DNA from: an uncultured Actinomycetes bacterium
GTDB taxonomy: Bacteria > Actinomycetota > JAICYB01
Length of the DNA: 64,000 bases
Reading direction: 5' to 3'
Assembly: GCA_964560135.1 (NCBI GenBank)
Contig: CAZLKN010000004.1
Span: forward strand, 26,997-90,996
Shown: piece by piece, positions 21,620 through 39,331 of the stretch
Position numbering within the stretch: the stretch's first letter is position 1
Layout of the letters: each line of letters opens with the position of its first letter
Position numbers and translations under genes: made by a program
Notes under the pieces: model-generated
Database searches by the model: none
What the model saw: only the letters and a program-made list of their open reading frames with translations
What the model was told of the DNA's origin: nothing

Positions 21620-23329
21620 CTATCTGAGGAAGAGCTCCCGCGGGACCACCATCCCGGTGGCCACGCTCGACACGCTGTCCACCGCGGAGCCCACGGTGGT
21701 GGAGTTCACGAGGTACAGACGGGCCCCGTAGGCGATCGGGATCAGCGGCATCTCACCGCAGACCATGTTCTCGAGCACCTGGTACATCTCGATCTGGTCC
21801 TCTTCGGCGATCGCCCTCCGTGCTTCCTTCTCGAGGATGCGATCGAAGTCCCGGTCGGAGAAGCGGGTGAAGTTGTTCTGTCCGATGCTGCCCGAGTCGA
21901 ACAGCGGGACGATGTAGCGGCTGGGAGCCGGGTACTGCGGTGCCCACGACATGCGGAATGGTCCCTCGAACCCGGGCTGCTGCAGGCCCGCGTCCAGATA
22001 GCTGTCCCATCCCAGCGGGACCGCTTCGACCTCCACCCCGAGGGCCTCGTTCCACTGCTGTGAGATCTCCTCGACCAGTTCCGCGTGGCCGAATTCGTCG
22101 TTGAAGGTCAGGCTGATGGTCTGGCCTTCGAGGTCCACACCCGCTCCCTGCAGACTCTGCCGTGCGGCTGCGACGTCCGCTGTGAGCGGTGTGTGTTCCG
22201 CGCAGGCGTTGTCGCGGTGAAAGGACCCCAACGCCGGCGGCAGGACGCCCTGCGCCGGTTGCCGGACACCACCGTAGACGGATTCGACGATACGGGTCCG
22301 GTCGAGAGCCTGGCTGAGCGCGATCCTGACCCCCCGCTGGTCGAAGGGCTCCTGGCTCACGGGGAGCCCGATGTACTCGAGGGTCGGAGTGGGGGCGGCC
22401 ACGAGGTCGTCCCCCAGCCGTCGCAGCTCCTCGAGCCGCTCCTGGGGGGCATGCGCGACGTCGATCTCTCCGGCCTCGAAGGCCGCCACCTGGGCGTCAC
22501 GGTCCTCGTAGAACCTGAACTCGATCTCATCCGGGTAACCCACGCCACCCTCGGTATGGGCCATGTTCGCCCCATAGTAGTCCTCGAAACGCTCCACGCG
22601 GATCGAGGCGTCGCCGGGCGTCCACGGCTCGGTCATCTGGTAAGGACCCGTACAGATCGGCTGGCGCGAGAATGCGTCGGGATCGTCCTCGATCTCCTGC
22701 TTGGGGACCGGGGCGGAGGCCGGGTGCGAGAGGACCCGGAAGAAGTCGGAGAGATCCTGCGTGAGCCGGATCTCGAAGCTGAACGGCTCGATCACCCGCA
22801 TCCCAGCGAACTGGCGACGCTGGCGCTCGTCGTCCACCTCGGCCGTGCCGTGCACCTGGTCGTAGCCGATCACCGGCTGGAAGATGGAGGCGACGGGGCT
22901 CGCGAAGTCGCGGTCGGCCACCCTCGAGAGCGCGAAGACGACGTCCTCGGCCACCACCTCGCGACCGTTGTGGAACCGGACACCCTTCTTGAGACGGATG
23001 TTGATGCGTTCGCCCCCGTCGCCGATCTGCCAGGAGTCGGCGATCCCCGGACGGACCTCCCCGGTCACCGGGTCGATGGTGACCAGCGTGTCGCAGATCG
23101 TCGACGTGAGGAGGCTCTGTGCGGGTTCGAGCGCGTCCGTGGCCGGAGGGTCGATCGTCAACGGCTCGTTGATCCCGATACGCAGCGTCCCGCCCGGGGC
23201 CGCCTCGGGACTCGCCTCGCGGAACTCGAGCACCTCGTCGCCTGCGCACGCCGCAGCGACGACCGAGAGCAGCCCGGCCGCAGCGATCGCGCGGCGGAAC
23301 CGGCCGTGGTTCTTCCGGCCCTCAGGCAC
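21620..23329 (-). CDS. ABC substrate-binding lipoprotein, family 5 (OppA/DppA-like)
   Basis: Lipobox VVAAAC, TIDP, PGIADSW, LKKGVRFHNG, TGPY, VRIALSQALDR; GTG 23329 overlaps the upstream stop. Confidence 0.92.
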   Translation of the reverse strand: MPEGRKNHGRFRRAIAAAGLLSVVAAACAGDEVLEFREASPEAAPGGTLRIGINEPLTIDPPATDALEPAQSLLTSTICDTLVTIDPVTGEVRPGIADSWQIGDGGERINIRLKKGVRFHNGREVVAEDVVFALSRVADRDFASPVASIFQPVIGYDQVHGTAEVDDERQRRQFAGMRVIEPFSFEIRLTQDLSDFFRVLSHPASAPVPKQEIEDDPDAFSRQPICTGPYQMTEPWTPGDASIRVERFEDYYGANMAHTEGGVGYPDEIEFRFYEDRDAQVAAFEAGEIDVAHAPQERLEELRRLGDDLVAAPTPTLEYIGLPVSQEPFDQRGVRIALSQALDRTRIVESVYGGVRQPAQGVLPPALGSFHRDNACAEHTPLTADVAAARQSLQGAGVDLEGQTISLTFNDEFGHAELVEEISQQWNEALGVEVEAVPLGWDSYLDAGLQQPGFEGPFRMSWAPQYPAPSRYIVPLFDSGSIGQNNFTRFSDRDFDRILEKEARRAIAEEDQIEMYQVLENMVCGEMPLIPIAYGARLYLVNSTTVGSAVDSVSSVATGMVVPRELFLR

Positions 23330-24407
23330 CGGGAAGCCCCGGCTCCGTGTTGATGATCGATTCACGCTGCGTCTCCACCTCCGCTCCGTCCACGACCCCC
23401 TCCGCCAGGCGCGTCTCCTTCACGGAAAGGCCCCCGAACTGCGTCGCGAACGCGTGGCTCTCCTCGAAGGAGATGTCGTTGGTGGGCGACACCAACCGGC
23501 CGTTGAAGATCTGGATGTTCCAGGCATCGATGAACACGCCGCAGGCGTCCACCCGGACCTTGTGGTTCTCCACCGTCGGCTCGTCGTCGCCGTCTTCCTC
23601 GCCGAGAGGATCGTCGGGGATGGGTCCCGTGTCCTCCTCTGTGGACTCTCCGATCATGGCGTCGAAGCTGAGCACCGTCTGACCGTTGCTCGCCGTCGAG
23701 GCCACGGACCACTCGGCCCCCGACTCGGCGGGGAAGGGCATCATCTTGACCGGCGGGTTCCAGTTGAACGCGGAGGTGTCGTCACCCTCGGTGACCTCGG
23801 TGCGGGTGAGGTAGATGCCCTGCAGGTCGGCGACATCGTGATTGGGGATCACCGAGTAGCTCGTGGTCGTGGTGCGGGAATCCATCTGCTCCACCACCTC
23901 GAAGCTGTACACGCCGTCGTCGTCCGGCGGCTCAACGTTCTGGACCGTCCGGGTGACCTCCTCCGGGAAGAGTTCGACATCGTCACCGCTCGACGTATGT
24001 CCGCTGGTCCGGAACGCGTAGCTCTCCTCTACCGGCGGCTGCGACGCGCGGTTCGAGGCCACCTCCCGAGGTGCACTGAGCGGATCGGCCGAGGGGCAGT
24101 CGTGGATCACCGGAGGCGGAGGGGGAGGCGGCGGCGGTTGCACGGGCTGCTGGACCCGCCGCACCACCCGGACCACGGGGTTGGGCTCGGTCACCAGCGC
24201 TCCGGGATCTTCGAAGTCCGACGACTGGATCCCGAGCAGCACATCACTCGGGAACTCTTTGACCCCCACGGCCACGGGGGTCCGGGGGCCGGCACATGCG
24301 CTCCCGAGCAGGAGCATCGTGAGTAGCAGCGTGAGCCCGACGGTCGGACGACGCCGCCTGGTATTCCTCGATCGATTCGACCGTCGATGCTCCCTGCTCT
24401 TCTTCAT
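23322..24407 (-). CDS. Uncharacterised lipoprotein with poly-Pro linker
   Basis: Basic N-region, lipobox LLGSAC, run of 8 Pro, acidic beta-rich C-domain. Confidence 0.75.
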   Translation of the reverse strand: MKKSREHRRSNRSRNTRRRRPTVGLTLLLTMLLLGSACAGPRTPVAVGVKEFPSDVLLGIQSSDFEDPGALVTEPNPVVRVVRRVQQPVQPPPPPPPPPVIHDCPSADPLSAPREVASNRASQPPVEESYAFRTSGHTSSGDDVELFPEEVTRTVQNVEPPDDDGVYSFEVVEQMDSRTTTTSYSVIPNHDVADLQGIYLTRTEVTEGDDTSAFNWNPPVKMMPFPAESGAEWSVASTASNGQTVLSFDAMIGESTEEDTGPIPDDPLGEEDGDDEPTVENHKVRVDACGVFIDAWNIQIFNGRLVSPTNDISFEESHAFATQFGGLSVKETRLAEGVVDGAEVETQRESIINTEPGLPGA

Positions 24408-24429
24408 CTCACCCTCCATTGTACGGCTG

Positions 24430-27408
24430 TTATTCGGGCGCGCCCCTTCGCGGATCGGTTGCCCCGGCGATGGGGCCACGCAGCTCCTCCCCCCGTTGGA
24501 ACGCCAGGAGTGAAGCGAAGATACGGTCGGCGTCCTCGAATCCCTGTCTCGCGATGAAGATCTCGTAGTACTCCATGCGCGGCGGGAACCAGAGGAAGAT
24601 CCGCTGCTCTGGGAGGCGTTGCACGTGGATGCGCTCGTTGCCGATCCGGGTCAGCTCGAAGGTACCCGTGCCGATGCTGCCCAGCACACCTTCGCGCAGC
24701 TCCTTCTGGGTGGCCTCCAGGCCGGGCTTGAACGCACCGACCTGAAGCGCCCCGAGGACCCCCTCGTCGTCGCGGACGGTGTACACCTGGCCGACGGCGA
24801 CGAGGCTCTCCTCACCGGCGAGCTCGAAGGCGCGCTCGGCCCCCGGCTCCCGCTGGAAGCGCAGTCCCTCGAACTCGCTGGGGGCGACCTCCTCGGGCAT
24901 CACCGGCTCGACGAGCTGCGCGGTTGGCTGACGGTCCTCGGCGCTGAGCCGTCCACAGGCCCCGCTGGTGAGCAGCAGGAGCACGATCATCCCGCCGACG
25001 GGGAGCGCGCGGCGGGCCCGGCGGAACCTCCCCAGCGGCGACAGCCGCCGGAGGCCACGGAGCCGCTCCCGCAGGGTCGTGCGCGGCCACAGGTTCGGGA
25101 TCTCCCGCGTATAGGGGTCCCGCAGCGAGACCCGCGACCCGAAGGCGATCACCCGGGTGATCGAGGGCTGTGCACGGCGCAGCCGGCGGGACACCGATCG
25201 GGCCATGTCCTCGGCGACCTCGGCGTCCTCGGGATGCAGGTCCCGCCTGAGGTCGCCCCAGAAGGCACGGGTGACCAGCCAGGCCAGCTCAGCATGCTCC
25301 AGATCCGGATCGACCGCCTGCAGGAACTCGAGTGGGGTCGCCGAGTTGTACCCGACGTTCAGATCCGATGCGGCGTCGCGGAAATCGCCGTAGGCGACCA
25401 TGATCCGCTCGAAGGCGCCCTGGTCCGCCGCCCAGCGACGGCGACGGAACCGGCGTGCCACCTTCACGACGCCCGGATACAGGGAGTACACGAACAACAG
25501 GCCGGCCAGGAACGGAAGCGTGACGGCCAGCCAGTAGCGGACGATGACGAACAGGAGCTGGATGCTCTGGAGGCGGATCGGGACGTAGATGACGAGGGCC
25601 AGGTCCTCGGTGGGCCTGATCTCGGGATCCTGCTCCTCGTCGTCCTGGGACAGGCTGGCCTGCGCCCGCGGAGGTGTCCCCACGATCGGCACCCAGCCGT
25701 AGCCGTGGAAGTAGGCCTCCAGCCACGTCGAGCCGTGGCGGGGACGCACCTCCCAGGTCTGAGCCTCGGGATCCTCCTTGTTGCCGGCGAAGAACCCGTA
25801 TCCGATCCGTGAGGGGATGCCCGCCCACCGGGCGAGCATGGCTTCGGCGGCGGTGATCTCGTAGGGCGTCGCGGGCTCTTCGTCCAGCATCTCCGCGACA
25901 CGCGCCGGCGGCACGTCGACCGGGTTCCCGGCCCCCTTGGCGATCACCTTCTCGTAGAAGGTGTTGCGGACGAACTGGAGTCGCTCGAACATGTTGTCTT
26001 CCGGCGCCTCGTTGAGGATCGCCACGACCTCGCTCGGCGGCGGCGGCATGCCCTCGAGGAACAGCTCCCGGATCTCCTGCGGAGGCGGCGGCGCCTCCGC
26101 CAGCTCCTCGCCCGATGGCGGCATCGGCGCCTCGACGGTGTAGGTCATGCCCCGCCTGGCGCGGGAGTCGGGCAACCGGAACATCTGCGTACGAGGATCG
26201 AAGGTGAGCTCGAAGTCGCTCTCGCGCTGCACCCGTTTGGCGTCGGCGATGATGGGGAGCACGTGCCCTTCGACGTCGAAGATCTCGAAGGTGGCCACGA
26301 ACGTGCCGTCGTCCTCGCGCTCGACCGGCTGCTCCGGTTCGCCGATCGACGGCGGGATCACGCCCGTCGGCTCGATGTCGATGAGGCGTGCGGTGGTGTA
26401 CGGCGGCAGGAGCCAGGCCACCTCCTCGTAGACGTCGAGTACCCCCAGCCGCCACGGGCCGGGGCGGTCCGCCTCGACGGTGAAAATGACCCGGTCCTCC
26501 TGGGGAGGCTGCACCTCCGGCCGCTTCGGTGGGATCTCCTGGTCGCGGTCGGTCTCCGGGAACAGGAACCCGGCCTGGCTGAGCGCGAACAGCACCACCA
26601 GCAGGAGGCCAACCATCCCGATGCCCTTGCCGAGACGGCGCATCTCGAACTGTCCGGAGGTGGCACCCTCGCGGGCCAGCTCGACCCCGTACGCCACGGC
26701 CATGGAGCCGACCAGCAGGGCCAGGGCCACACCCGTGGTGAGCATCGTGCCTTCCTGCGGCTGGATCAGCGCCGCAGCGAAAACCAGCGGCACCGGCATG
26801 AAGATGCCGAGCTTCGGACGGTCGAGGCTGGTGGCCAGCGATGCCGCGGCGGTGGCCAGGACGGCGGTGAGGACGACGAGGATGAACCTCCAGCCCGGAT
26901 CGAAGGGGATCGGCGGCTGGGCCACGCCTCCGGTCCGGATCGCCTCGGCGACGAGACCGGGAAGGTTGGCCGTTCCCCCCGTGGCATCCGGGATGATCAG
27001 GATCGCGCCCACCAGCAGGGCCGCCGGCAGCGCCAGGTACTGCACGATGCTGGGTCTGCGGGTGCGATAGGAGAAGGCGACCATGCCGGCCCCCAGCAGG
27101 GGGCCGATGAGGGCAACGGCCTTCGGGAAGAGGCCGCGGAACAGCCCCGCACACATCCAGGCGGCGGCGGTGGCGGAGAGGAACACCGCCAGCGAGGTGA
27201 GCAACGGGTCGGCGGGCTGATGCTCGGGTCCTTCCTGGGCTTCCCGGCGCTCGGCCTCCGTCAGCTCCTCGTCTTCGAGGATGCGTGGCTCCTCCTCCGT
27301 CTCCGTTGGAGTGACGGGGAGTTCGGTGGTGCGATCGGGGGCTTCGATACTCACCGAGATCGTGTCCTTGCCGTCATCGTCGTCATCTCTCCGTCCATCG
27401 AACTCCAC
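24430..27408 (-). CDS. Multi-TM transglutaminase-like (TgpA/DUF3488-type) protein, catalytic triad absent
   Basis: N-terminal TM bundle; AMLARWAGIPSRIGYGF and WLEAYFHGYGWVP match the TGase-like core; follows MoxR-DUF58. Confidence 0.85.
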   Translation of the reverse strand: MEFDGRRDDDDDGKDTISVSIEAPDRTTELPVTPTETEEEPRILEDEELTEAERREAQEGPEHQPADPLLTSLAVFLSATAAAWMCAGLFRGLFPKAVALIGPLLGAGMVAFSYRTRRPSIVQYLALPAALLVGAILIIPDATGGTANLPGLVAEAIRTGGVAQPPIPFDPGWRFILVVLTAVLATAAASLATSLDRPKLGIFMPVPLVFAAALIQPQEGTMLTTGVALALLVGSMAVAYGVELAREGATSGQFEMRRLGKGIGMVGLLLVVLFALSQAGFLFPETDRDQEIPPKRPEVQPPQEDRVIFTVEADRPGPWRLGVLDVYEEVAWLLPPYTTARLIDIEPTGVIPPSIGEPEQPVEREDDGTFVATFEIFDVEGHVLPIIADAKRVQRESDFELTFDPRTQMFRLPDSRARRGMTYTVEAPMPPSGEELAEAPPPPQEIRELFLEGMPPPPSEVVAILNEAPEDNMFERLQFVRNTFYEKVIAKGAGNPVDVPPARVAEMLDEEPATPYEITAAEAMLARWAGIPSRIGYGFFAGNKEDPEAQTWEVRPRHGSTWLEAYFHGYGWVPIVGTPPRAQASLSQDDEEQDPEIRPTEDLALVIYVPIRLQSIQLLFVIVRYWLAVTLPFLAGLLFVYSLYPGVVKVARRFRRRRWAADQGAFERIMVAYGDFRDAASDLNVGYNSATPLEFLQAVDPDLEHAELAWLVTRAFWGDLRRDLHPEDAEVAEDMARSVSRRLRRAQPSITRVIAFGSRVSLRDPYTREIPNLWPRTTLRERLRGLRRLSPLGRFRRARRALPVGGMIVLLLLTSGACGRLSAEDRQPTAQLVEPVMPEEVAPSEFEGLRFQREPGAERAFELAGEESLVAVGQVYTVRDDEGVLGALQVGAFKPGLEATQKELREGVLGSIGTGTFELTRIGNERIHVQRLPEQRIFLWFPPRMEYYEIFIARQGFEDADRIFASLLAFQRGEELRGPIAGATDPRRGAPE

Positions 27409-28759: not shown

Positions 28760-29794
28760 TCAGGCGCTCGCGGCCTGCGCGGTCTTCCCAGAGCCCATCG
28801 GCACCTTCACCCGCGTGACGATGCGGTCCACGACGGCCTCCACGGTCTCGTCGCGCAGCATCGCGTCGGGCGTCAGGATCAACCGGTGAGCGAGGACCGG
28901 CATCGCGAGGCTCTTGACGTCGTCGGGAAGCACGTCCTCGCGGCCCTGCGAGGCGGCCAGGACCCGCGATGCCCGCTGGAGTGCCAGCGCGGCACGGGTA
29001 CTGCCCCCGATCAACAGCCCCGGGTCGGTTCGCGTCGCCTGCACGAGATCGACGATGTAGAGCTTCACGGCCTCGGAGACCGTGACGTCGGCGGCCCAAT
29101 CGACCATGGCCACGACCTCGTCGCGGGAGACCGCCGAGCCGATGTCCTCGATGGCCTCGGTCTTGCGGTTCGCGTCCAGCACCTCGACCTCTGCCAGCCG
29201 GTCCAGGTAGCCGAGGGACAGCTTGAACAGGAACCGGTCGAGCTGGGCCTCCGGCAGTGGGAACGTACCTGCGAGCTCCACCGGGTTCTGGGTGGCGAGC
29301 ACGAAGAACGGCTTCGGGAGCGGGTGGGTGATGCCGTCGATCGTGACGTTGCGCTCCTGCATGGCCTCCAGCAGCGCCGCCTGCGTCTTCGGAGTGGCAC
29401 GGTTGATCTCGTCGGACAGGAACACGCTGGCGAAGATCGGGCCGGGCCGGAACACGAACTCGCCGGTCTTCCGGTCGAGGACGGGCGATCCGGTGACGTC
29501 ACCGGGCAGGAGGTCCGGGGTGCACTGGATCCGCGAGTACTCGGCGTCGATCGTCTTGGAGATCGCCCGGCAGAGCATCGTCTTACCGGTGCCGGGGAGG
29601 TCCTCGAACAACAGATGCCCGTTGGCGAACAGGCACGTCATCGCCAGCCGGACGATCTCGTCCTTGCCCTTGATGACCTGCTCGATGTTGTCCACGATCA
29701 ACTCGAAGCGGTCCCGGAACGCCTGACGGCTCAGACCCGCCTGGGCCTTCCCCTTCTTCGGTGACTTACGGGTACTCACAGCCACACCGATCAC
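28760..29794 (-). CDS. moxR: MoxR family AAA+ ATPase
   Basis: EDLPGTGKT, RIQCTPDLLPGDVTG, DEINRATPKTQAALLEAM, ATQNPVE, LPEAQLDRF; start may be GTG 29785. Confidence 0.96.
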   Translation of the reverse strand: MIGVAVSTRKSPKKGKAQAGLSRQAFRDRFELIVDNIEQVIKGKDEIVRLAMTCLFANGHLLFEDLPGTGKTMLCRAISKTIDAEYSRIQCTPDLLPGDVTGSPVLDRKTGEFVFRPGPIFASVFLSDEINRATPKTQAALLEAMQERNVTIDGITHPLPKPFFVLATQNPVELAGTFPLPEAQLDRFLFKLSLGYLDRLAEVEVLDANRKTEAIEDIGSAVSRDEVVAMVDWAADVTVSEAVKLYIVDLVQATRTDPGLLIGGSTRAALALQRASRVLAASQGREDVLPDDVKSLAMPVLAHRLILTPDAMLRDETVEAVVDRIVTRVKVPMGSGKTAQAASA

Positions 29795-29795
29795 C

Positions 29796-32700
29796 TCACC
29801 TCGTCTTCTTACGGTCGTTGGTCGACCTGGTCGTGTTCTTCTTCTTCTTCTTCTTCGCCTTCGCCGCCGGCTCGTCGTCCTCGTCGTCGTTGCCGGAAGT
29901 CGCGGGGGCCTCGACGCCGAGCATCGCCGCCAGACCCTTCCCGCCCGACCGTGAGACCACGGACTCCGACGCCGCCATGTAGGACTGCATGACCCGCGGG
30001 TCGTTCACGACCTCCCGCGGCGGACCCGTGGTCACCACCGCGCCGAGCTCCATGGCGATCATCCGGTGGGAGATGGAGGTGATCAGCGGCATATCGTGCT
30101 CGATGACCAGCAGCCCGGCCCCCGTCTCCTTGGCCAGCCGGACGAGCACCGGACCGAGCTCCTCGGTCTCCGCCTGGGCCAGACCGGAGGACGGCTCGTC
30201 CAGCAGCAGGATCCTGGGCTGGGCGGCCATGACACATGCGATGTCCACCGCACGACGGCTTCCGGTGGACAGCTCGTTGACGAACTTGTCGGCGTAGGCC
30301 TGGAGGCCGAGCAACTCGATCAATCCGTCGGCGCGCCGGTAGGCGCGGCGCTCGGCCTGGCGGAGCTTCGGCGCCCACACCGCGGCCATGAGGGGATTCT
30401 TGGCTTTCAGATGGCGCTCGAGGGCCACCACGATGTTCTCCCGGACCGTCATCGACGGGAACAGCCGGGTGTTCTGGAAGGACCGGCCGAGGCCGAGACG
30501 CGCCCGGGCGTCGGGTGAGAGCGTGGTGACGTCGGTGGCCTCGAGGAGGACCGAGCCGGTGTCGGGCGTGACGAACCCGGAGATCGCGTCGAACAGCGTG
30601 GTCTTCCCGGCCCCGTTGGGACCGATGATCCCCACGATCTCGGCGGCGCCGACGTCGAGACCCACGTCCCTGAGGGCGTGCACCCCGCCGAAGCTCACGC
30701 TCACGCCCTCCACGGTGAGGAGCCGCTCACGCTCTTCGCTGGCCTGCTGGTGAGCGCCGGATGTCCGGACGGGCCCTCCACTGGCGGTGCCGGAGACCGC
30801 GCCGCCCATGAACACCGCACGCACGAGCTCCGGGCGCCGCATGAGCTCCTCGGTGGAGCCGTCGAAGCGGATCTCACCCTTCTCCATGAACACCGCCCGC
30901 TCGGCGATGGTCACGGCCACGTTCAGCGACTGTTCGACGAGCAGGACCGTGGTGCCCTGCTCGTGGATCTGACGGAGGGTGTCCAGGAGCTGCTCCACGA
31001 TCTGCGGGGCGAGTCCGAGGGAGAGCTCGTCGATCATCAGCAGGCGCGGGCGCATCAGGAACGCCTGACCGAGCGCGACCATCTGCTGCTCACCACCGGA
31101 CAGGTTCCCCGCCGGCTGATGCAGCCGCTCGCGCAGGATCGGGAAGAAGTCGAGGACCTGTTCAGTCCTCTCCTTCACGTAGGACTCTTCGCTGCGGTAC
31201 ATCCAGGCCGCCGTGCGCAGGTTCTCCTCGACGGTGAGCGTGGGGAACACGGCGTGGCCACCGGGCACCATGACGATGCCGTTGGCGGCGTTCTCGTGCG
31301 GCGGCACATGGGTGATGTCGTGGCCGTCGAGGAAGATCGCGCCGTTGGAGGCCTCCTGGATACCGGCGATCGCACGCAGGAGGGTCGACTTCCCGGCACC
31401 GTTGGTTCCCATCACGGCGACGATCTCGCCTTCCTCCACGTCGAAGTCCACGCTGAAGAGCACCTGGACGCTGTCGTAGGTGACGTCCACGTCGCGGCAG
31501 ATGATCATCTTGCGCCGGCCCCGGGCCTTGGCCCGGCGGGCCTCCTCGTCGGCCATGCTGGCCGCCCGGGCCGCCCGGATGTCCCGATCGACGCCGAACG
31601 ACGAGGTGCTGAGGATGAACGCCCCGATCAGGTACACGGGGATGAACATCAGCATCCCGCGGCGAAGCCCCCAGTTGTCGACCATCGGCGCGATGAACAT
31701 GATGTTGAACAGCAGCCCGATGATCTGCCAGGGCGCGATGGTCTGGAGACCGAGCCCCCGGATCCGGGGCGGGACCACCAGGGAGATCAGCGTGGCCAGG
31801 GCGGGCTGGAAGGCGGTGCCGATGAAGCCGATCGGCAGGCTCACGATGATCGAGAGCCAGAGGTTGCCGGAGAACGCGAGCACGGCCACCGTGCCGGCGT
31901 TGAGCACGAGCAGCCCGCCGAGGAACGCCATCACGCGACCGGGCTTGAAGGCGAGGAGCCGGTCGGCCAGCGGGCCGGCGAACAGGAGTCCGGTGATGGA
32001 GAAGAGCCCGGACCCGGTGGCGATGTAGCCACGTGCCCGGGGGCCGAGCCCGAACTCCTCGGCAAAGTACAACCCGACGAACAACCCGATCACCGTCCCG
32101 GAGATCTGGAGGAACGGGGTCGCGTACCACAGGCGCCGCAGGGTGGTGATCGACTTCGCGGCGCGCCAGGCCTCCGCCCAGCTCACGGGCTTCTGCTCGG
32201 TGGTGGCGACCTCCTCGTCGGCCCCCATCTCCTTGCGCTCCTGGTAGCCGCGGACCGGTTCCTTGAGGAAGAAGAGCGCGAAGGTCACGGCTGTCGCGAT
32301 GGCACCGAGGGCGATGACCGACACCCGCCAGGTGAACCACTCGGCGAGGTTCCCGGCGATCGTCGGGCCCAGCAGCGCACCCACACCGCCCATCAGGCCG
32401 AGGAATGCGAACACGCGGGCGCGGCTGCGCGACGGGAAGTAGTCGGCCAGCAGCGGGAAGCCCGCCGGTCCCGCCACAGACGCTCCGACGCCGGCCAGGG
32501 TGCGACCAGCCACGAGCTGGGGAACGCTGCCGGCCGCCCCCTGCAGGACCGAGGCGGCGTTGGCGACCAGGTTCCCGATCCGCAGCATCCACACGCGGGA
32601 CACCCGGTCGGCCATGAATCCCAGCGGCGGGGCGAGCAGGATCATCACGATGCCGAGGAGCGATCCCAGCGTGATGAGGAACTGGAGGCTGAAGGCGAAC

Positions 32701-33107
32701 TCGGCGCGCATCTCGGGCAGGAGGACGTCCAGGGCGATGTTGTCCCACTGGGTGATCATCCCCATGAGCCCGAGCAGGATCAGCGGCATCTTGGGCCCGC
32801 CGATCTTCCGGGGGTCGAGGTCGGCGATGAGGCCGGCGATGGTTTCCTTCAGCGGCTTCCGCGGCGCGTCGCCCTCGATCGGCGTGAACTCGTAGTCCTC
32901 GGCCCGGACGCCGAGCTCCTGCTCCCGTTCCGACGGCACCAGGTTGCGAGGCCGCACCGAGGCCGCCAGCTCCTGGTCGACACCCCCGGTCACCGCGGTG
33001 TCGGCTTCGGCCAGGGCGTCGGCCTCCACGTGTCGGGGAAGCGGCTCCGATCCGAGACCGCCGGTCTCCTCGACCGGGCGAGTCAGGTCTTCTTTCCCTT
33101 TAGACAC
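29796..33107 (-). CDS. Fusion protein: MFS transporter + LivF-type ATPase + LivG-type ATPase
   Basis: MFS motif-A-like GFMADRVSR and GPLADRL, about 12 TMs; NBD1 GTNGAGKST/LSGGEQQ/LLMIDE/VEQ; NBD2 GPNGAGKTT/LSTGSRR/LLLDEP/IEHD. Confidence 0.9.
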   Translation of the reverse strand: MSKGKEDLTRPVEETGGLGSEPLPRHVEADALAEADTAVTGGVDQELAASVRPRNLVPSEREQELGVRAEDYEFTPIEGDAPRKPLKETIAGLIADLDPRKIGGPKMPLILLGLMGMITQWDNIALDVLLPEMRAEFAFSLQFLITLGSLLGIVMILLAPPLGFMADRVSRVWMLRIGNLVANAASVLQGAAGSVPQLVAGRTLAGVGASVAGPAGFPLLADYFPSRSRARVFAFLGLMGGVGALLGPTIAGNLAEWFTWRVSVIALGAIATAVTFALFFLKEPVRGYQERKEMGADEEVATTEQKPVSWAEAWRAAKSITTLRRLWYATPFLQISGTVIGLFVGLYFAEEFGLGPRARGYIATGSGLFSITGLLFAGPLADRLLAFKPGRVMAFLGGLLVLNAGTVAVLAFSGNLWLSIIVSLPIGFIGTAFQPALATLISLVVPPRIRGLGLQTIAPWQIIGLLFNIMFIAPMVDNWGLRRGMLMFIPVYLIGAFILSTSSFGVDRDIRAARAASMADEEARRAKARGRRKMIICRDVDVTYDSVQVLFSVDFDVEEGEIVAVMGTNGAGKSTLLRAIAGIQEASNGAIFLDGHDITHVPPHENAANGIVMVPGGHAVFPTLTVEENLRTAAWMYRSEESYVKERTEQVLDFFPILRERLHQPAGNLSGGEQQMVALGQAFLMRPRLLMIDELSLGLAPQIVEQLLDTLRQIHEQGTTVLLVEQSLNVAVTIAERAVFMEKGEIRFDGSTEELMRRPELVRAVFMGGAVSGTASGGPVRTSGAHQQASEERERLLTVEGVSVSFGGVHALRDVGLDVGAAEIVGIIGPNGAGKTTLFDAISGFVTPDTGSVLLEATDVTTLSPDARARLGLGRSFQNTRLFPSMTVRENIVVALERHLKAKNPLMAAVWAPKLRQAERRAYRRADGLIELLGLQAYADKFVNELSTGSRRAVDIACVMAAQPRILLLDEPSSGLAQAETEELGPVLVRLAKETGAGLLVIEHDMPLITSISHRMIAMELGAVVTTGPPREVVNDPRVMQSYMAASESVVSRSGGKGLAAMLGVEAPATSGNDDEDDEPAAKAKKKKKKNTTRSTNDRKKTR

Positions 33108-35430
33108 TCTCGGTCTCCGTGCTCGACGATGGCCCGAAGGTCCGCTGCTCTTCCTGTTCTGCTTCGGCTTCCTTGCGTTCCTCGGTGCCGTCGCGGTGGA
33201 GGTTCGCGTGGAGGACGGTCTCTCCGGTCAGGCCCAGCGCCCACTGGTCCTCGAGCCGGTACCTGCTGGGGACGAACACCGCTCCTCCACCGGGACGCAT
33301 CTTCGGAGCGATCGCGGCACGCTCGGACAGCAGCACCTCGGCCTTCTGGTCGGCCACGAGGCTCGGTACGAGGATCCGGTACCGCTTGGCCACGCGGCGG
33401 AGCAGCGAGTCGCGGAGTCCGAAGACGAGCGACGACAGGCCGCCGGGGATGAGCATCAGCACGATCAGACCGCCTCCACCGCTGGCGATGAAGATGACGA
33501 TCGGGTTCGAGGTGAACAGCGTCAGCGCGGCGAAATAGGTGGTCCCGAGCAGCGGTCCGGCGACGGCGCCGAACCCACCGATCACCGCGATCAGGAACAT
33601 CGTCACGCTCTGTTCCGGCGGGTAGGCGGTGGCCTGGACGCCGAACTGCGAGTACGCGAAGAGCGCACCAGCGAGGGCCGCGACGAACCCCGAGATCGCG
33701 AAGGCTCCGAGCCGGGCCCGGACGAGGTTGATCCCGAAGGATTGGGCGGCCTGTTCGTTGTCACGCGACGCGATCAGTGCACGGGCGGTGCGGCTGCGGC
33801 GCAGGCCGACGATGGCCGCCACGACCGCCACGAGGAAGAACATCGTGAAGTAGTAGAAGACCCGCTGGTCCTCCATCTCCATGCCGAGGAGCGTCGGTCG
33901 CTCGAGGCTGTCGGGCAGGTGCTTGCCGAGGAACCGGGGGTTGAGAAGGATCGCGGAGGTACTCAGCGCGAAGGCGAGCGTCATGATCGCCAGATGCAAG
34001 CCCCGGAGCTTGAGGGCGGGGAGACCGATCAGCACCGCCACAACGGCCCCCGCCAGCGCCGCGGCCACGATGGCCAAGGGCCAGGGCCAGCCCAGGTATG
34101 CGGCGACGTAGCCGCCGACGGCGGCGAAGGCGAACTGTCCGAGGCTGATCTGACCGGCCCATCCCGTGAGCACGAGCAGGGACAAACCGATCATCCCGTA
34201 GATCATGTACACGGCCATGAGGTTGGTCTGGCTCGGAGACAGCACCCACGGCAGCCCGAGCGCGACGACCACCAGGACCGCCCAGCCGTTGCGGACCCAT
34301 CGTTTGACCACAGCCAGGTGGGCCAGTTCCTTAGGGATCGGCCGGATCTCACGATCCGCCTTCCACGCGCTCGCCTGCTCGATCTCCGCCCGGGAGGCCT
34401 GGTAACGCTGCAGCAGAAGCACGGTGGCGAGGATCAGCAGGAAGACCCCGTCGAGGGCGACCGTGGACCCGAACGACCACAGCACCGACTGCTCGAGGAC
34501 CCCGAAGACCACCGCCGCCGCCGCGGTCATGGGCAGGCTCACCATCCGGGCGATCACAGCCACGGCCAGGATCTTGACCATCGTGCTCACGTTCAGCGAC
34601 GACTCGCCCTGGGCCCCCACCGACATCGCCGTCAGCAGGCCCGCGGTCGCCGACAGCGCACCCGCGGCGATCCACACGCGGCTCGTGACCTTGTCGACGT
34701 TCACCCCGAGGGTGGCGACCCGGCTCGGGTTCTCGGCAGCGGCCCGGATCGCGATGCCGGTGCTCGACCGCCGGAAGTAGAGCATCAGACCGCCGATGAA
34801 CAGCAGCCCGATGAGGACCGTGAGGATGTCGGGGGTGTGGAAGGTCGCGGGAGAGATCTCGACCTGCCAGTCGAATGGGGCCCCCACCGCTCCGAGCTGG
34901 AGGCCGGCCTCCTGCTGCTCCTCGGTCGTGAGCTGGTTGGGGATCATGCCCTGGAAGCCGCCGAGGAGCTGCGCCAGGAAGATCGTGGCCACGGTGAGGA
35001 CCAGGCGTGGAGCGTTGGAGAACCGCTTCACCACGAAGACGTAGATCGCGTACGCGAGGACGAGCGCGAGGACGAAGGACAGGATGAGGGAGAAGTAGTA
35101 GTTGAACCGGTACAGCCCCGGCGTGACCCGCTCGATGCACGGCGGGCAGACCGCCCTCACCAGCCGGAACAGCGGCATGTACTGGACCATCACCACGAAG
35201 AAGGTCGCGGCGACGACACCGATCTGCACTTGGGCGAAGTTGATGATCCGGTTCGCGCGGTAGACGAGGACCACACCGATCGCGTGGAGGGCGATCGTCG
35301 CGCCTCCCACGACCCCGAGTGCCCTGATCCCCGGTGGAACGCCGCCCTCGAAGAACTGGATGCTCAGCAGGATGACGACGAGCGCCAGGACGTCGTTGCG
35401 CTCCCGGAGGATCCTCAGCGCCTGGACCAT
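33100..35430 (-). CDS. Fused LivH-LivM (HAAT/branched-chain amino acid-type) ABC permease
   Basis: IGVVLVYRANRIINFAQ, GIAIRAAAEN...TLGVN (LivH half); LTGWAGQISLGQ, LRGLHLAIMTLAF, RDNEQAAQSFGIN (LivM half). Confidence 0.93.
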   Translation of the reverse strand: MVQALRILRERNDVLALVVILLSIQFFEGGVPPGIRALGVVGGATIALHAIGVVLVYRANRIINFAQVQIGVVAATFFVVMVQYMPLFRLVRAVCPPCIERVTPGLYRFNYYFSLILSFVLALVLAYAIYVFVVKRFSNAPRLVLTVATIFLAQLLGGFQGMIPNQLTTEEQQEAGLQLGAVGAPFDWQVEISPATFHTPDILTVLIGLLFIGGLMLYFRRSSTGIAIRAAAENPSRVATLGVNVDKVTSRVWIAAGALSATAGLLTAMSVGAQGESSLNVSTMVKILAVAVIARMVSLPMTAAAAVVFGVLEQSVLWSFGSTVALDGVFLLILATVLLLQRYQASRAEIEQASAWKADREIRPIPKELAHLAVVKRWVRNGWAVLVVVALGLPWVLSPSQTNLMAVYMIYGMIGLSLLVLTGWAGQISLGQFAFAAVGGYVAAYLGWPWPLAIVAAALAGAVVAVLIGLPALKLRGLHLAIMTLAFALSTSAILLNPRFLGKHLPDSLERPTLLGMEMEDQRVFYYFTMFFLVAVVAAIVGLRRSRTARALIASRDNEQAAQSFGINLVRARLGAFAISGFVAALAGALFAYSQFGVQATAYPPEQSVTMFLIAVIGGFGAVAGPLLGTTYFAALTLFTSNPIVIFIASGGGGLIVLMLIPGGLSSLVFGLRDSLLRRVAKRYRILVPSLVADQKAEVLLSERAAIAPKMRPGGGAVFVPSRYRLEDQWALGLTGETVLHANLHRDGTEERKEAEAEQEEQRTFGPSSSTETESV

Positions 35431-35599: not shown

Positions 35600-35720
35600 C
35601 CCGATTACATGTCCACTAATGATAGAAGATGATATAGGCTCCCGCGGCGGTTGGCGAGTCCGACCTTCCGCCCACCGCAGCGGCCCCGCTCCGATTTAGT
35701 TCATATACCATCCCAATCCC
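35600..35720 (-). promoter_or_regulatory. AT-rich probable promoter region of the livHM-MFS/ABC-moxR operon
   Basis: AT-rich patches (ACTAATGATAGAAGATGATATAG; TTTAGTTCATATACC) in a 347-bp intergenic gap. Confidence 0.4.
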
Positions 35721-35777: not shown

Positions 35778-37544
35778 TCAGGCGCGCAGGTCCTCGGCCA
35801 GCATCGGGTCGTCCACGGACCGTACCCATCGGGCGAACGCGCCCCCCGCGGCCATGAGTTCCGCCGGAGACCCGGCCTCCAGGATGCGGCCCCCCTCGAG
35901 CATCACGACGCGGTCGGCGCGCAGCGCCGTGCGGAGACGGTGAGCGATGACGACCGCCGTCCTGCCGGCCAGCAGCGTCCGCAGGGCCTCCTCCACCACG
36001 GCCTCGGTGGCGGGATCCAGGCTCGAGGTCGCCTCGTCCAGGATCAGGATCCGGGGACCGGCGAGGAAGGCCCGGGCAAGCGCCACGAGCTGGCGCTGCC
36101 CGGCCGAGAGCGACAGCCCCCGGTTGGCCACCTCGGTGTCCAGTCCGCCGGCGAGGGACGCCAGGGCCCGCTCGAGCCCGATCGCCGAAGCGGCCTCCTC
36201 GATCTCCTCGTGCGCGGCCTCGGGACGGGCGGCGGCGATGTTGTCGGCGATGGTTCCGTCGAACAGGAACCCTTCCTGGGGGACGAGCGCCAAGTGGCGC
36301 CGAAGCGACTCGCCGGTGACGCGGCTGACGTCCTGGCCGTCGATCAGGATGCGGCCGGAGGTGAGCTCGTAGAAACGCGCCATCAGCTTGGCGATCGTGG
36401 ACTTCCCGGCGCCGCTCCCGCCGACCAGCGCGACCCGCTCGCCGGGCGCGATCGTGAGGTCCACGTCCTGGATGACCAGTGGCTGACCGGGCCCGTACCG
36501 GAACGAGACTCCCTCGAGGCGCACTTCGCCAGGGCCGGGCTCCAGCGGCCGGGCGTCGGCGGCGTCGGAGACGCGTGGTTGCTCGTCCTGGAAGGCGAAC
36601 ACCTTGGCGAAGGACGCCGCCGCCGCTTGGAGGAGGTGCGCGAGCTCCGTGAACTGCTGGATCGGCTGGAAGAGCCGTCCGACGTAGAGGGTGAACGCCA
36701 CCACGACACCGACGGGGACCCGTCCGTCCACCGCGAGCAGGGCGCCGTAGCCGAGCACCGCCGCGAGGGCCACCGGGTGGAGGAACTCCACGATCGGGTA
36801 ATAGCGGGCGCTCACGCGGGCCATGCCCATCCGGGCGCGGTAGGCGTCCTCGTTGACCTCCCCGAAGGCCCGGCGCTGGGCTTCCTCCACGTTGTAGGCC
36901 TGGACGACCCGGATCCCGATCAGCGACTCGTTGAGCCGGGTCAGAAGGTTGGCGACGCTGTCCCGCACTTCGAGCTGGGCCGCGAACGCCTGCCGCTGGA
37001 ACACGATCGTGGCCATGAGGAGCGGCGGCACGATCAGCAGGGCCACCAGCGTCAGGGGGACCGAGAGCGTAACCATCAACACGATCGTGAGCACCAGGAC
37101 GAGGAGGGCCTCCACGAGCAGCGCCAGACCGCCGCCCACGAACTGCTGGAGGTTCTCGACATCAGAGGTGAGGCGTGAGACGAGCCGGCCGGAGCGCTCC
37201 CGCGTGAAGAAGTCGAGATCGAGCGCGAACAGGTGGTCGAGGAGACGGCTGCGCAGATCCCGCATGTACTCCTGCGCGAAGCGGCCCATCGTCCGCACCT
37301 GCACGTAGACCGCTCCGCCCTGGACCAGGAGCAGACCGAGGTAGGCGAGAGCGGACCCGAGTATCCAGATCCCCTGGCCGGCGACCACGCCGCGGTCGAT
37401 CGCGACCCCCACGAGAACCGGGGTGAGCGACGCGCAGACCGTCTGGACCACCGTGGCACCCACGCCGAGTCCCGCGGTGCGTCGGTACGGCCGGAACTCG
37501 GCCAGCACCCGCTTGAGGGGAGGCTTCCTCGGGAAGTCGGTCAC
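35778..37544 (-). CDS. Type IV ABC exporter half-transporter (TMD+NBD)
   Basis: TMD, GGSGAGKST, LSAGQRQ, LILDEATS, IAHR. Confidence 0.93.
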   Translation of the reverse strand: MTDFPRKPPLKRVLAEFRPYRRTAGLGVGATVVQTVCASLTPVLVGVAIDRGVVAGQGIWILGSALAYLGLLLVQGGAVYVQVRTMGRFAQEYMRDLRSRLLDHLFALDLDFFTRERSGRLVSRLTSDVENLQQFVGGGLALLVEALLVLVLTIVLMVTLSVPLTLVALLIVPPLLMATIVFQRQAFAAQLEVRDSVANLLTRLNESLIGIRVVQAYNVEEAQRRAFGEVNEDAYRARMGMARVSARYYPIVEFLHPVALAAVLGYGALLAVDGRVPVGVVVAFTLYVGRLFQPIQQFTELAHLLQAAAASFAKVFAFQDEQPRVSDAADARPLEPGPGEVRLEGVSFRYGPGQPLVIQDVDLTIAPGERVALVGGSGAGKSTIAKLMARFYELTSGRILIDGQDVSRVTGESLRRHLALVPQEGFLFDGTIADNIAAARPEAAHEEIEEAASAIGLERALASLAGGLDTEVANRGLSLSAGQRQLVALARAFLAGPRILILDEATSSLDPATEAVVEEALRTLLAGRTAVVIAHRLRTALRADRVVMLEGGRILEAGSPAELMAAGGAFARWVRSVDDPMLAEDLRA

Positions 37545-39331
37545 GTCACCAGCCGGTGCTCGGTGGTGTCCAAGCCCAGGGCCCGCCGGTAGACGGGGAT
37601 CCGCAACAGATCCTGGTGGGCCCCCTGCTCGACGATCCGTCCGCGTTCCATCAGCACCACCCGGTCGGCCAGGGCCAGGGTCTCCACGCGGTGGGCGACG
37701 ATGATCGTCGTCCGCCCGCGCATCACCTCCTGCAGGCCGCGGCGGATCGCCTCGTCGGTCGCCGGGTCCACGGCGCTCGTGGCGTCGTCGAGGATGAGCA
37801 CCCGCGGGTCCCGAAGGATCGCGCGCGCGATCGCCAGCCGCTGGCGCTGTCCGCCGGACAGGGTGGCGGCCTGCTCCCCCACGACCGTGTCGTAGCCGTA
37901 GGGCAGCTCGCGGATGAAACCGTCGGCCTGGGCCAGCTCGGCGGCCCGTAGCACCTCCGCATCAGTGGCGTGGGGACGTCCGATCGTGATGTTCTCCCGG
38001 ACGGTCCCCGAGAAGATGACCGTGTCCTCGAACACGATCGACACCTTCCGCCGCAGCTCGCGGACCGACAGCTCGATCACGGGGGCCCCGTCGAGCAGCA
38101 CCCGGCCCTCCCACGGGTCGTAGAACCGTGGGATCAGCCGCGCGACGGTGGACTTGCCGCAGCCGGTCATCCCCACCAGCGCCACCGACGACCCCCCAGG
38201 GATCTCGAGCGAGAAGTCGCGCAGCACCGGTCCCCGCGGCTCGTAGCCGAAGTTCACGCCCTCGAACCGGACGGTACCCGGGCCCGGGGGCAGCGTCATC
38301 GGATGTTGGGGGCTCGTCAGGTCGGGTCTGGCCACGAGCACCTCGGCGATCCGGGCGGACGAGGCCATCGACTGCGGCCAGATCACGAGTGCCTGCGCGC
38401 CGATGAGCACCGGTGCCACCAGAGCCCCCAGGTACTGCATGAAGGCGAACAGGCCGCCGGGGGTCATCCGTCCGCCGAGCGCGAGCCAGCCGCCGAACCC
38501 GATCACCACGAGCATCGCGGCGCCGGGGATCGCGATGAACGTGCCGAGGAAACGTCCGCGGAGCGCCGCCACCTTGACCCCGTGCTCGTGCACCCGGCCG
38601 GCGAGATCGGCCCCCTGGGACCCGTGCACGGCCTCCAGACCGTGACCCTTCACGACGCGGATCCCGCCCACGCGCTGTTCCACGAACTGCGCGAAGACGC
38701 CGACCTCCTCCTGCATCCGGACCGAAACCCGGTGGATCGGCCGGGCCTGACTCACGGTGAGCGCGGACAGCACCACGACCACGGCGAACACGGCGGCGGC
38801 GAGGGCGGGCTGGAGGACGAACAGGATCACCACGCCACCGACGGCCAGCAGGACCGACTGGGCGAGGAACGGGATCATCGCCACCGCGGCCTCCATCAGC
38901 GTCACATCGGACGACGCCCGGGACATCAGCTGCCCGGTTCCGAGGCGGTCGTGGTAGCTGAAGGACAGCCGCTGGAGGTGCTGGAAGATTCGGTCCCGCA
39001 CGTCGTTGCCCGCAGCGGCCATCATCTTGCCCGCCTGGTACTTGCGGATCCCGCCGAAGATCGCACGCATGAGGCCGAGACCGAACAACACGAACACGTA
39101 CCAGATGATGTCCTCGACACGGCCGCCGAGGATCGCATCGTCCACCGCACGCTTCCCGACGATCGGGATCGCGAGCAGTGCGGCGAGATACAGGAACGCC
39201 GCGACCAGCGAGATGACGAAGGCTCGCCGCTGACGTCCGACCGTCTCGAAGATCAGTCTGCGGGCGGCCTTCACCGATCCCGGGGAAGGGGAGGTGGTAT
39301 CTGGGGGCTCGGAGGCGGAACGCTCAGACAA
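37541..39331 (-). CDS. Type IV ABC exporter half-transporter, partner subunit
   Basis: TMD, GMTGCGKST, LSGGQRQR, degenerate Walker B LILDD; GTGA-coupled to its partner; start uncertain. Confidence 0.93.
   Translation of the reverse strand: MSERSASEPPDTTSPSPGSVKAARRLIFETVGRQRRAFVISLVAAFLYLAALLAIPIVGKRAVDDAILGGRVEDIIWYVFVLFGLGLMRAIFGGIRKYQAGKMMAAAGNDVRDRIFQHLQRLSFSYHDRLGTGQLMSRASSDVTLMEAAVAMIPFLAQSVLLAVGGVVILFVLQPALAAAVFAVVVVLSALTVSQARPIHRVSVRMQEEVGVFAQFVEQRVGGIRVVKGHGLEAVHGSQGADLAGRVHEHGVKVAALRGRFLGTFIAIPGAAMLVVIGFGGWLALGGRMTPGGLFAFMQYLGALVAPVLIGAQALVIWPQSMASSARIAEVLVARPDLTSPQHPMTLPPGPGTVRFEGVNFGYEPRGPVLRDFSLEIPGGSSVALVGMTGCGKSTVARLIPRFYDPWEGRVLLDGAPVIELSVRELRRKVSIVFEDTVIFSGTVRENITIGRPHATDAEVLRAAELAQADGFIRELPYGYDTVVGEQAATLSGGQRQRLAIARAILRDPRVLILDDATSAVDPATDEAIRRGLQEVMRGRTTIIVAHRVETLALADRVVLMERGRIVEQGAHQDLLRIPVYRRALGLDTTEHRLVT

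Follow-up and report, generated by a model that had tools for sequence, protein, structure and literature searches.

Can an ATPase gate or drive a transporter of the major facilitator superfamily (MFS)? MFS carriers are powered by ion gradients and ATP-binding cassette (ABC) transporters by ATP, and these two largest transporter classes are taught as mechanistically separate. The question is raised by a gene on the minus strand (29796..33107) of a 64,000-nucleotide stretch, here called the window, from an uncultured Actinomycetes bacterium (assembly GCA_964560135.1, contig CAZLKN010000004.1, positions 26,997 to 90,996). It encodes a single polypeptide in which a Spinster-type MFS domain of 12 helices is followed by a LivF-type and then a LivG-type nucleotide-binding domain (NBD1 and NBD2). 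The fusion is genuine, conserved, present in multiple copies and under selection, and we strongly infer that it powers a HAAT-type ABC transporter as its motor subunit, with the Spinster-type MFS built in as a further membrane module. Such a conserved, multi-copy MFS-ABC polypeptide represents a natural experiment on the question above. We favour, with a modest probability of about 40%, the reading that two transport pathways share one machine and that a rigid connector couples the gate of the MFS to NBD1. The combination of MFS and ABC domains was already present in database annotations, by name only, and the triad of MoxR, DUF58 and transglutaminase genes was known from the literature. New here are the constraint on connector length, the Q-loop signature of NBD1, the finding that the proton switch is mostly lost, the division of the family into clades, and an architecture in which MFS-LivF is paired with LivHM-LivG.

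A single polypeptide joins a complete MFS protein to two ABC ATPases

An earlier note on this DNA had described an open reading frame of 1103 amino acids with about 12 transmembrane helices. The minus-strand frame is indeed open throughout from a GTG start codon. Pfam matched MFS_1 at residues 113-452 with 146.3 bits (cut-off 33.4) and ABC_tran in two stretches with 209 bits. NCBIfam grouped NBD1 (about residues 533-770) among the LivF/UrtE-type ATPases, and NBD2 (about 796-1050) among those of LivG/UrtD/LptB type, while the equivalog cut-offs were missed (LivG, 327.5 versus 362; LivF, 268.4 versus 441). For residues 108-528, AlphaFold2 modelling from a 72-sequence alignment gave 12 long transmembrane helices with a predicted local distance difference test score (pLDDT) of 94.5, in agreement with the number in the note. 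The Ala/Arg-rich linker, RDIRAARAASMADEEARRAKAR, was located at residues 508-529 of the translation, and the reported acidic and then poly-Lys tail is present as DDEDDE followed by KKKKKK. The note had further placed sequences resembling MFS motif A in both halves of the domain. The first copy, GFMADRVSR at residues 163-171, is strongly kept among relatives, but the second, GPLADRL at 378-384, is weakly conserved although present in the window protein. At the N-terminus, the alignment begins at about residue 50-108 in most relatives and at residue 3 in the nearest one (L010).

The fusion is genuine, conserved and multi-copy

A scan covering one genome per GTDB species yielded 172 relatives, of which 80 loci were kept; from these, or from the subsets given, the dN/dS (ratio of nonsynonymous to synonymous substitution rates) values, the tree and the residue counts below were drawn. 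A fusion was regarded as uninterrupted when one tblastn match extended from query residue 135 or earlier (MFS start) to residue 1040 or later (NBD2 end). As a result, the whole fusion was found in one uninterrupted match in 71 of the 80 loci; eight of the remaining nine are broken by contig ends or divided into two matches, and the ninth (L085) has no MFS. Fused forms therefore dominate, contrary to a scenario in which homologs are always split, and no split MFS/LivF gene pair was seen among the loci and relatives examined. The 120 best matches in a collection of 5.8 billion proteins all carried PF07690 and PF00005; one was the window's own protein and the other 119 showed 50-68% identity to it. 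The database names of the fusions were only 'MFS transporter' or 'ABC-type branched-chain ... ATPase/MFS permease'. Full-text literature searches, which did not extend to supplementary files, returned no paper on an MFS-LivF/LivG fusion, in keeping with the view in the note that it is mechanistically undescribed; one candidate article (PMC3924187) was, in its accessible portion, unrelated to such a fusion.

The source genome is a 3.56-Mb metagenome-assembled genome of 152 contigs, one of its paralogs has NBD2 in another frame, and frameshifted gene calls occur among the database relatives, all of which would suit an adjacent MFS gene and LivFG-fusion gene being joined by an assembly or sequencing error. 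We consider this artefact refuted for practical purposes, because one frame was found in 71 of 80 independent loci, two cultured strains included, and because of two observations on soil-metagenome contigs. Contigs from three soil-metagenome runs of one study cover positions 31220-33200, including the junction at about 31505, with zero differences, though the assembly may derive from these very samples, so that the runs do not count as independent. The junction near 31500, for which the earlier note had proposed read mapping, is spanned by these contigs without a stop or frameshift. A related strain in a fourth soil run differed by 39 substitutions, of which 36 were synonymous, 3 nonsynonymous and 34 at third codon positions; the third-position excess was seen on both sides of the MFS-NBD junction, and an in-frame insertion of 3 nucleotides lay within the Lys-rich tail. 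Across nine close pairs of fusions, dN/dS was 0.08-0.36 for the MFS, 0.04-0.26 for NBD1 and 0.07-0.33 for NBD2.

The source genome contains four paralogous fusions with 40-48% identity, and seven fusion clusters were found in one genome of 2.8 Mb. When 400 other genomes of the phylum were sampled, with the top three candidates per genome scored, junction-spanning matches were found in 39 (two of them, G073 and G272, are unpublished genomes), 31 of the long type; long-type fusions occurred in all nine same-family genomes of this sample. The design is common in uncultured soil actinobacteria. Two cultured carriers, Jiangella asiatica 5K138 and Actinospongicola halichondriae Hal317, make the questions of MFS coupling and of the MoxR module directly testable. 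A phylogenetic tree of 74 fusions, omitting nine incomplete loci and the paralog on source contig C82, showed four well-supported clades, namely A1 (17 rows, including the window), B (21), A2 (10) and C (26), with A1 sister to B and A2 sister to C. In the C82 paralog (L009:3250-6173), MFS-NBD1 and NBD2 lie in different frames that overlap by about 100 nucleotides, by either an assembly frameshift or a natural split. Very long stop-to-stop frames in several loci (L019, L030, L061 and others) were considered as LivHM-fusion or fusion-MoxR mega-proteins and rejected as chance open frames in GC-rich DNA, since the matched pieces fall in different frames.

The two NBDs and the adjacent LivHM permease

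The gene directly upstream encodes a fused permease with a LivH-like part at residues 39-341 and a LivM-like part at 334-670 (NCBIfam). The genetic context analysis found LivHM 700 nucleotides or less upstream, on the same strand, in 70 of the 72 loci with enough flank and upstream of all four paralogous fusions in the source genome, and the window operon contains no further NBD gene. On this evidence both NBDs almost certainly serve the adjacent LivHM, as the earlier note had proposed. With both ATPases of LivHM on the fusion, the MFS would be held permanently beside the permease. The roles that the note offered for such a tether, namely coupled import/export, product efflux or sensing, are conjectural, and none of the results favours one over the others.

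A second architecture points in the same direction. In the short type, found in three loci (L090, L091 and L092, from genomes G110, G096 and G405) with 30-35% identity, the order is [MFS-LivF], LivHM and LivG in each case, and no MoxR module was found within the flanks. An MFS-NBD chain of 735 residues in L090 is followed by a LivH-LivM-NBD chain of 936 residues, with a divergently transcribed Peripla_BP_6 gene adjoining; here the NBD heterodimer could form only between the chains, so the MFS must adjoin LivHM. Rare in-frame database chains with the order LivH-LivM-MFS-NBD-NBD (P0017, P0084) or MFS-NBD-NBD-MoxR (P0043) are either genuine or sequencing errors. Assignment to the urea transporter UrtBCDE was rejected: on the LivHM permease UrtC scored 69.7 versus 296 and UrtB 38.7 versus 250, and UrtE (336) and UrtD (307.7) exceeded their cut-offs only because both NBDs match each model.

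The MFS domain is Spinster-like but has mostly lost the proton switch

A profile of 72 MFS domains was searched against the PDB, and the bacterial Spinster homolog HnSpns (6e8j) was the best match at 1.6e-42, the next being 1.7e-26. The DYYPP and REPxRG motifs are common to the profile and HnSpns in the alignment, and Foldseek TM-scores of the MFS model against DgoT, HnSpns and SPNS2 were 0.65-0.80. Single-sequence PDB searches with the MFS, LivHM and a binding protein gave no matches. Residues of HnSpns were transferred through a hidden Markov model alignment onto the 72 sequences, in which a shift by one residue is possible. The Asp/Arg/Arg of motif A (D167/R168/R171 in the window protein) are kept in 70, 71 and 72 of the 72 sequences, the charge-relay residue D142 (D222) in all 72 and R122 (R202) in 59; P284, R286 and G287 of the MFS are invariant or nearly so. 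In HnSpns, E129 acts as the master protonation switch and R42 as the substrate Arg, according to the available part of the published study (PMC9440201). At the position of E129 the window protein has Ala (A209), and among the 72 sequences Glu and Asp occur five times each (acidic in 10/72); at that of R42 it has Asn (N123), with Arg in 16/72. D41 corresponds to D122, and Asp is found there in 55/72. Therefore, the cytoplasmic gate is invariant, and the buried proton and substrate site is not.

These features can also be read in terms of a Spinster secondary transporter or facilitator, driven by the proton-motive force or another gradient, that is tethered for 1:1 stoichiometry and co-localization with ATP uninvolved. 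It would, for example, export a product or carrier whose partner compound is brought in by the ABC importer. The complete MFS fold, the near-invariant motif A and charge-relay Asp (70-72 of 72) and the frequent Asp at the D41 position agree with such a carrier, as do its relatives. The MFS profile matched 2804 representative clusters at E <= 1e-30, many short ones being fragments or frameshifted calls, and stand-alone-looking relatives scored up to about 1e-130. Four stand-alone Spinster-like relatives from other genomes, with 31-35% identity, occur without Liv neighbours (0/4). Against it stands the loss of the HnSpns master-switch Glu, with no acidic residue in 62 of the 72. We judge this main rival somewhat unlikely, also in view of the connector and of NBD1.

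A fixed-length connector and an altered Q-loop in NBD1

D509, just past transmembrane helix 12 (TM12), and Y544 of NBD1 are spaced exactly 35 residues apart in 61 of 74 sequences; the spacing is 26 in six others, 31 in three more and 33-36 in the remaining four. The linker between the two NBDs, in contrast, varies between fixed columns from 28 to 106 residues, with no length shared by more than eight sequences. In an AlphaFold2 model of residues 108-1050 (pLDDT 90.5; predicted TM-score 0.77), TM12 is one helix through residue 528, and four residues later the first strand of NBD1 begins. The pLDDT at the connector junction is 89-94 versus about 50 in the inter-NBD linker. A passive tether would need no helical connector of fixed length beside a linker that varies so widely, which argues against an independent carrier.

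NBD1 contains Walker A at residues 567-575, LSGGE at 669-673, Walker B D693/E694 and VEQ with Q726 at the H-loop position. In NBD2, Walker A is at 829-837, followed by Q878, LSTGS at 946-950, Walker B D970/E971, IEHD with H1004 and a weak BCA_ABC_TP_C match at 1025-1044; its signature is LSTG(S/T/L/Q) versus LP(F/Y/H)G in four of the free LivG-type NBDs of the source genome. The note had described the Walker A/B, signature, VEQ and IEHD motifs as intact, and all are in the translation; the Q-loop position of NBD1, which it overlooked, has neither Gln nor Glu. ABC ATPases carry a Gln in the Q-loop, and free LivF proteins a Glu. Gly is found there in NBD1 of all 80 loci (G616 in the window), as 'PG' in 79 and 'LG' in one. 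Within the source genome, Gly is present in all five membrane-anchored LivF-type NBDs (four fusions and one other), and Glu or Gln in all six free ones. This makes the two ATP sites unequal, with the MFS attached to the less canonical NBD. A change shared by 80 of 80 loci suggests an NBD adapted to its membrane partner, which again fits poorly with an uninvolved carrier.

The other membrane-anchored domain, on source contig C11 (7783-9531, plus strand), is a LivF-type NBD with a Gly Q-loop that follows about 170 hydrophobic residues unlike MFS and lies immediately downstream of a LivHM gene. Membrane anchoring of LivF may be more widespread.

Comparison with known transporters

LivJ/K-LivHMGF of Escherichia coli and the HAAT family of ABC importers (Transporter Classification 3.A.1.4) share several features with the system described here: LivH- and LivM-type permease halves (BPD_transp_2), Gln at the H-loop position of a LivF-type NBD, a LivG-type NBD with C-terminal BCA_ABC_TP_C and, in related loci, divergent Peripla_BP_6 proteins. 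Unlike in E. coli, the LivF-type NBD carries an MFS, the NBD order is F then G, both NBDs and both permeases are each in one chain, the Q-loop of NBD1 has Gly, the LivF and LivG equivalog cut-offs are missed and the window contains no binding-protein gene. With the Spinster proteins (HnSpns, mycobacterial MsSpns, human SPNS1/SPNS2) the MFS domain has in common the best PDB profile match, both sequence motifs, the fold and the conserved motif A, R122 and D142 equivalents; it differs in the covalent link to two NBDs and in the mostly unconserved E129 and R42.

In a structure search with the full model, the closest solved chains were tandem-NBD subunits, with the MCR-activation A2 component first and the OppD/DppD chains 8j5q_D and 8wdb_D at ranks 2-3, and no solved chain spanned both the MFS and the NBDs. 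OppABCD/DppABCD of Mycobacterium tuberculosis are also ABC importers of an actinobacterium, and their two NBDs likewise lie in tandem on one chain; unlike the fusion, these peptide importers have an ATPase chain without a membrane domain, and only the NBD half is included in the match (TM-score 0.35-0.39, query-normalized). ABC exporter half-transporters consist of a membrane domain and then an NBD in one chain. Like them, the fusion has, in the model, a last transmembrane helix that extends into the cytoplasm and runs straight to the NBD, and its short-type relatives have one membrane domain ahead of each NBD. It departs from them in that the membrane domain has the MFS fold, for which we know of no coupling helix, and that the NBDs would also have to serve LivHM.

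The operon includes a MoxR-DUF58-TgpA-like module

Genes for a MoxR-type ATPase, a DUF58 protein and a TgpA-like membrane protein, each scoring above the Pfam cut-off, are tightly packed downstream of the fusion on the same strand, together with a lipoprotein-like open reading frame (Table 1). The few terminator-like sites in the operon lie within coding sequence (7 found versus 3.6 ± 1.5 expected).

Table 1 Features of the fusion gene and its operon in the window
Feature	Position	Strand	Basis
Promoter-like hexamers in the 347-nucleotide gap upstream of LivHM	35629..35657	-	Consensus match only; 1 found versus 0.8 expected
Fused LivH-LivM permease, 776 residues, two BPD_transp_2 halves	33100..35430	-	Pfam 181.7 bits, two stretches
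Whole fusion gene, 1103 residues, MFS, LivF-type NBD, LivG-type NBD	29796..33107	-	GTG start; 8-nucleotide overlap with LivHM stop
N-terminal cytoplasmic extension, residues 1-107, acidic, poorly conserved	32787..33107	-	Alignment
Spinster-type MFS domain, residues 108-507, 12 transmembrane helices	31587..32786	-	Pfam, profile, AlphaFold2
Connector MFS-NBD1, residues 508-532	31512..31586	-	Model and alignment
NBD1, LivF-type, residues 533-770	30798..31511	-	Pfam/NCBIfam
Inter-NBD linker, residues 771-795, pLDDT about 50	30723..30797	-	Model and alignment
NBD2, LivG-type, residues 796-1050	29958..30722	-	Pfam/NCBIfam
C-terminal low-complexity tail and stop codon; acidic run, then poly-Lys	29796..29957	-	Translation
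MoxR-type AAA+ ATPase (AAA_3, AAA_lid_2)	28760..29794	-	Pfam AAA_3 204 bits; starts 1 nucleotide past fusion stop codon
DUF58 protein, two N-terminal hydrophobic helices	27436..28740	-	Pfam 32.5 bits
TgpA-like membrane protein, 992 residues, Transglut_core 471-574, six N-terminal hydrophobic helices	24430..27408	-	Pfam 36 bits
Lipoprotein-like open reading frame, signal peptide and lipobox-like LLLGSAC	23322..24479	-	Sequence

Among the 80 loci, the module lies downstream of the fusion in 27 (type A) and upstream of LivHM in 19 (type B), and was not found in 34 (type C), of which 8 have flanks long enough to exclude it. These genes thus flank 46 of the 80 loci, and the two arrangements correspond to three of the four clades. 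In the reverse test, 17 of 17 full-length TgpA-like genes in five other genomes lay within about 6 kb of a fusion-type MFS, and both TgpA-like genes of the source genome were beside a fusion, giving 19/19 over six genomes. The module and the fusion are reciprocally linked, and the fusion is the only firm genomic partner of the module found here.

The operon PA2875-PA2873 of Pseudomonas aeruginosa, which includes TgpA, is a MoxR-DUF58-transglutaminase-like operon, and mutation of the Rhizobium leguminosarum operon RL3499-RL3502 reportedly causes envelope-integrity defects (as cited in PMC5700661). The triad is also described in the bifidobacterial PFNA cluster and in mycobacterial moxR operons in the accessible part of a 2025 review, which regards the role of DUF58 and its relation to MoxR as still unclarified (PMC12067865). 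The window module resembles the PFNA- and RL3499-RL3502-type operons in having an AAA_3 MoxR, a DUF58 protein and a Transglut_core membrane protein in the same order. Unlike them, it is joined to an ABC transporter operon, and its TgpA-like core (residues 380-680, 43 aligned sequences) has no conserved Cys or His column, so the protein is probably not a thiol enzyme. The core is the presumed position of the canonical transglutaminase catalytic Cys-His-Asp triad. The only invariant His of the TgpA-like protein, H705, lies past the core in a conserved D-x-E-H-x-E-L-A-W-L block. The protein also contains a second signal/lipobox-like stretch at about residues 801-822, and the part downstream of this appears as a separate match about 1 kb away in some loci.

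This linkage bears on another reading of the fusion, in which the MFS fold would transport nothing and would serve as a scaffold or ligand sensor that anchors or regulates the ATPase or docks the MoxR-DUF58-TgpA-like membrane proteins. Besides the 19/19 association, it could account for the MFS-NBD-NBD-MoxR single chain, for the infrequent residues at the R42 position (Arg in 16/72) and the proton switch (acidic in 10/72), for a looser constraint on the MFS than on the NBDs, and for the different hydrophobic N-terminal anchor on another LivF-type NBD of the source genome. However, clade C keeps the MFS without the MoxR module, with eight loci whose flanks suffice to exclude it; motif A and the charge relay, which make up the alternating-access machinery, are invariant, and a mere anchor would not need them; and the dN/dS of 0.08-0.36 indicates selection over the whole MFS domain. 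This second rival is clearly unlikely.

Several further observations concern the neighbourhood. The lipoprotein-like open reading frame contains a poly-Pro run, belongs to no Pfam or NCBIfam family and matched only unnamed clusters (<0.9) in the ESM Atlas; relatives, including a 434-residue open reading frame (L007:13426-14730), lie behind the TgpA-like gene in many loci. An SBP_bac_5 solute-binding protein gene of the peptide/nickel type (21620-23365, minus strand) starts in its last 44 nucleotides and may be transcribed together with it; an Opp/Dpp permease to match was not noticed in the vicinity. Two ABC exporter half-transporters (ABC_membrane and ABC_tran, 588 and 596 residues; 35778-39331, minus strand) lie directly upstream of the operon. 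They were rejected as a conserved neighbour, as full-length matches upstream of the fusion were found only in L059. Anti-phage defence was also rejected, with PADLOC giving generic ABC/P-loop matches on the fusion and none on the other five proteins.

A possible coupling of the MFS gate to ATP hydrolysis

In the coupled machine that we favour, LivHM would import a solute delivered by divergent LivJ-like binding proteins, with catalysis mainly at the ATP site composed of the Walker A/B motifs, Q-loop and H-loop of NBD2 and the LSGGE of NBD1. The MFS would move a second compound, probably amphipathic or lipophilic, as Spinster transporters do. Its cytoplasmic gate would be coupled to NBD1 by the fixed-length helical extension of TM12, and not via the Spinster proton master switch, which is missing from most members. 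The window transporter would be co-transcribed with MoxR, DUF58, the Cys-less TgpA-like protein and the lipoprotein, company that suggests a cell-envelope task over plain amino-acid nutrition. A bolder version, a long shot, would make the fusion the first primary-active MFS: closure of the NBD dimer would open and close the Spinster gate through the rigid TM12 extension, one ATPase cycle would run LivHM and the MFS in fixed phase, and the MoxR-DUF58-TgpA-like module would be responsible for assembly or remodelling of the machine. If true, uptake of an envelope precursor or breakdown product, for example, could be coupled to the flipping or export of an amphipathic partner.

Some of the evidence weighs against coupling. 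The MFS is less conserved than the NBDs (mean pairwise identity 31%, versus 63% for NBD1 and 57% for NBD2), and its dN/dS is above that of both NBDs in eight of the nine pairs. With Asp at the D41 position in most members (55/72), proton coupling may still operate. Both the invariant cytoplasmic motifs and the Asp that follows TM12 are shared across the Spinster family, being seen in HnSpns and in apparently stand-alone relatives, and are by themselves no proof of coupling to an NBD. The Gly Q-loop need not end catalysis, because the Walker B Glu694 is intact. In L085 (8010-11629), LivHM is followed after 30 nucleotides by LivF-LivG and the MFS is cleanly gone. This locus is nested in clade C beside its fused sister L075, with an NBD1 83% identical and the Gly Q-loop retained, which indicates secondary loss of the MFS. 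An ABC core lacking the MFS can therefore occur, and separable parts are also what an independent tethered carrier would predict. Finally, no binding-protein gene (Peripla_BP_6) was found in the window.

At least 20 divergent LivJ-type Peripla_BP_6 genes are present in the source genome outside the window, and a Peripla_BP_6 gene adjoins 23 of the 34 type C loci, 5 of the 27 of type A and none of the 19 of type B. The LivJ-type binding protein of Jiangella scored 38.7 bits with Peripla_BP_6 versus a cut-off of 31.7. Arrays of divergent LivJ-type genes occur on source contigs C15, C14, C4, C18 and C19, with five genes on C15, five on C4 outside the window and, at a distance of a few kb from the fusion on C14, another four; the source genome has about two LivJ-type genes per Liv-type permease locus. 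On source contig C5 (57688-60987, minus strand), a canonical Liv system is apparently encoded in one frame of 1322 residues in the order LivH-LivM-LivG-LivF, with the NBDs as G then F, and Liv components seem to be fused frequently in this genome.

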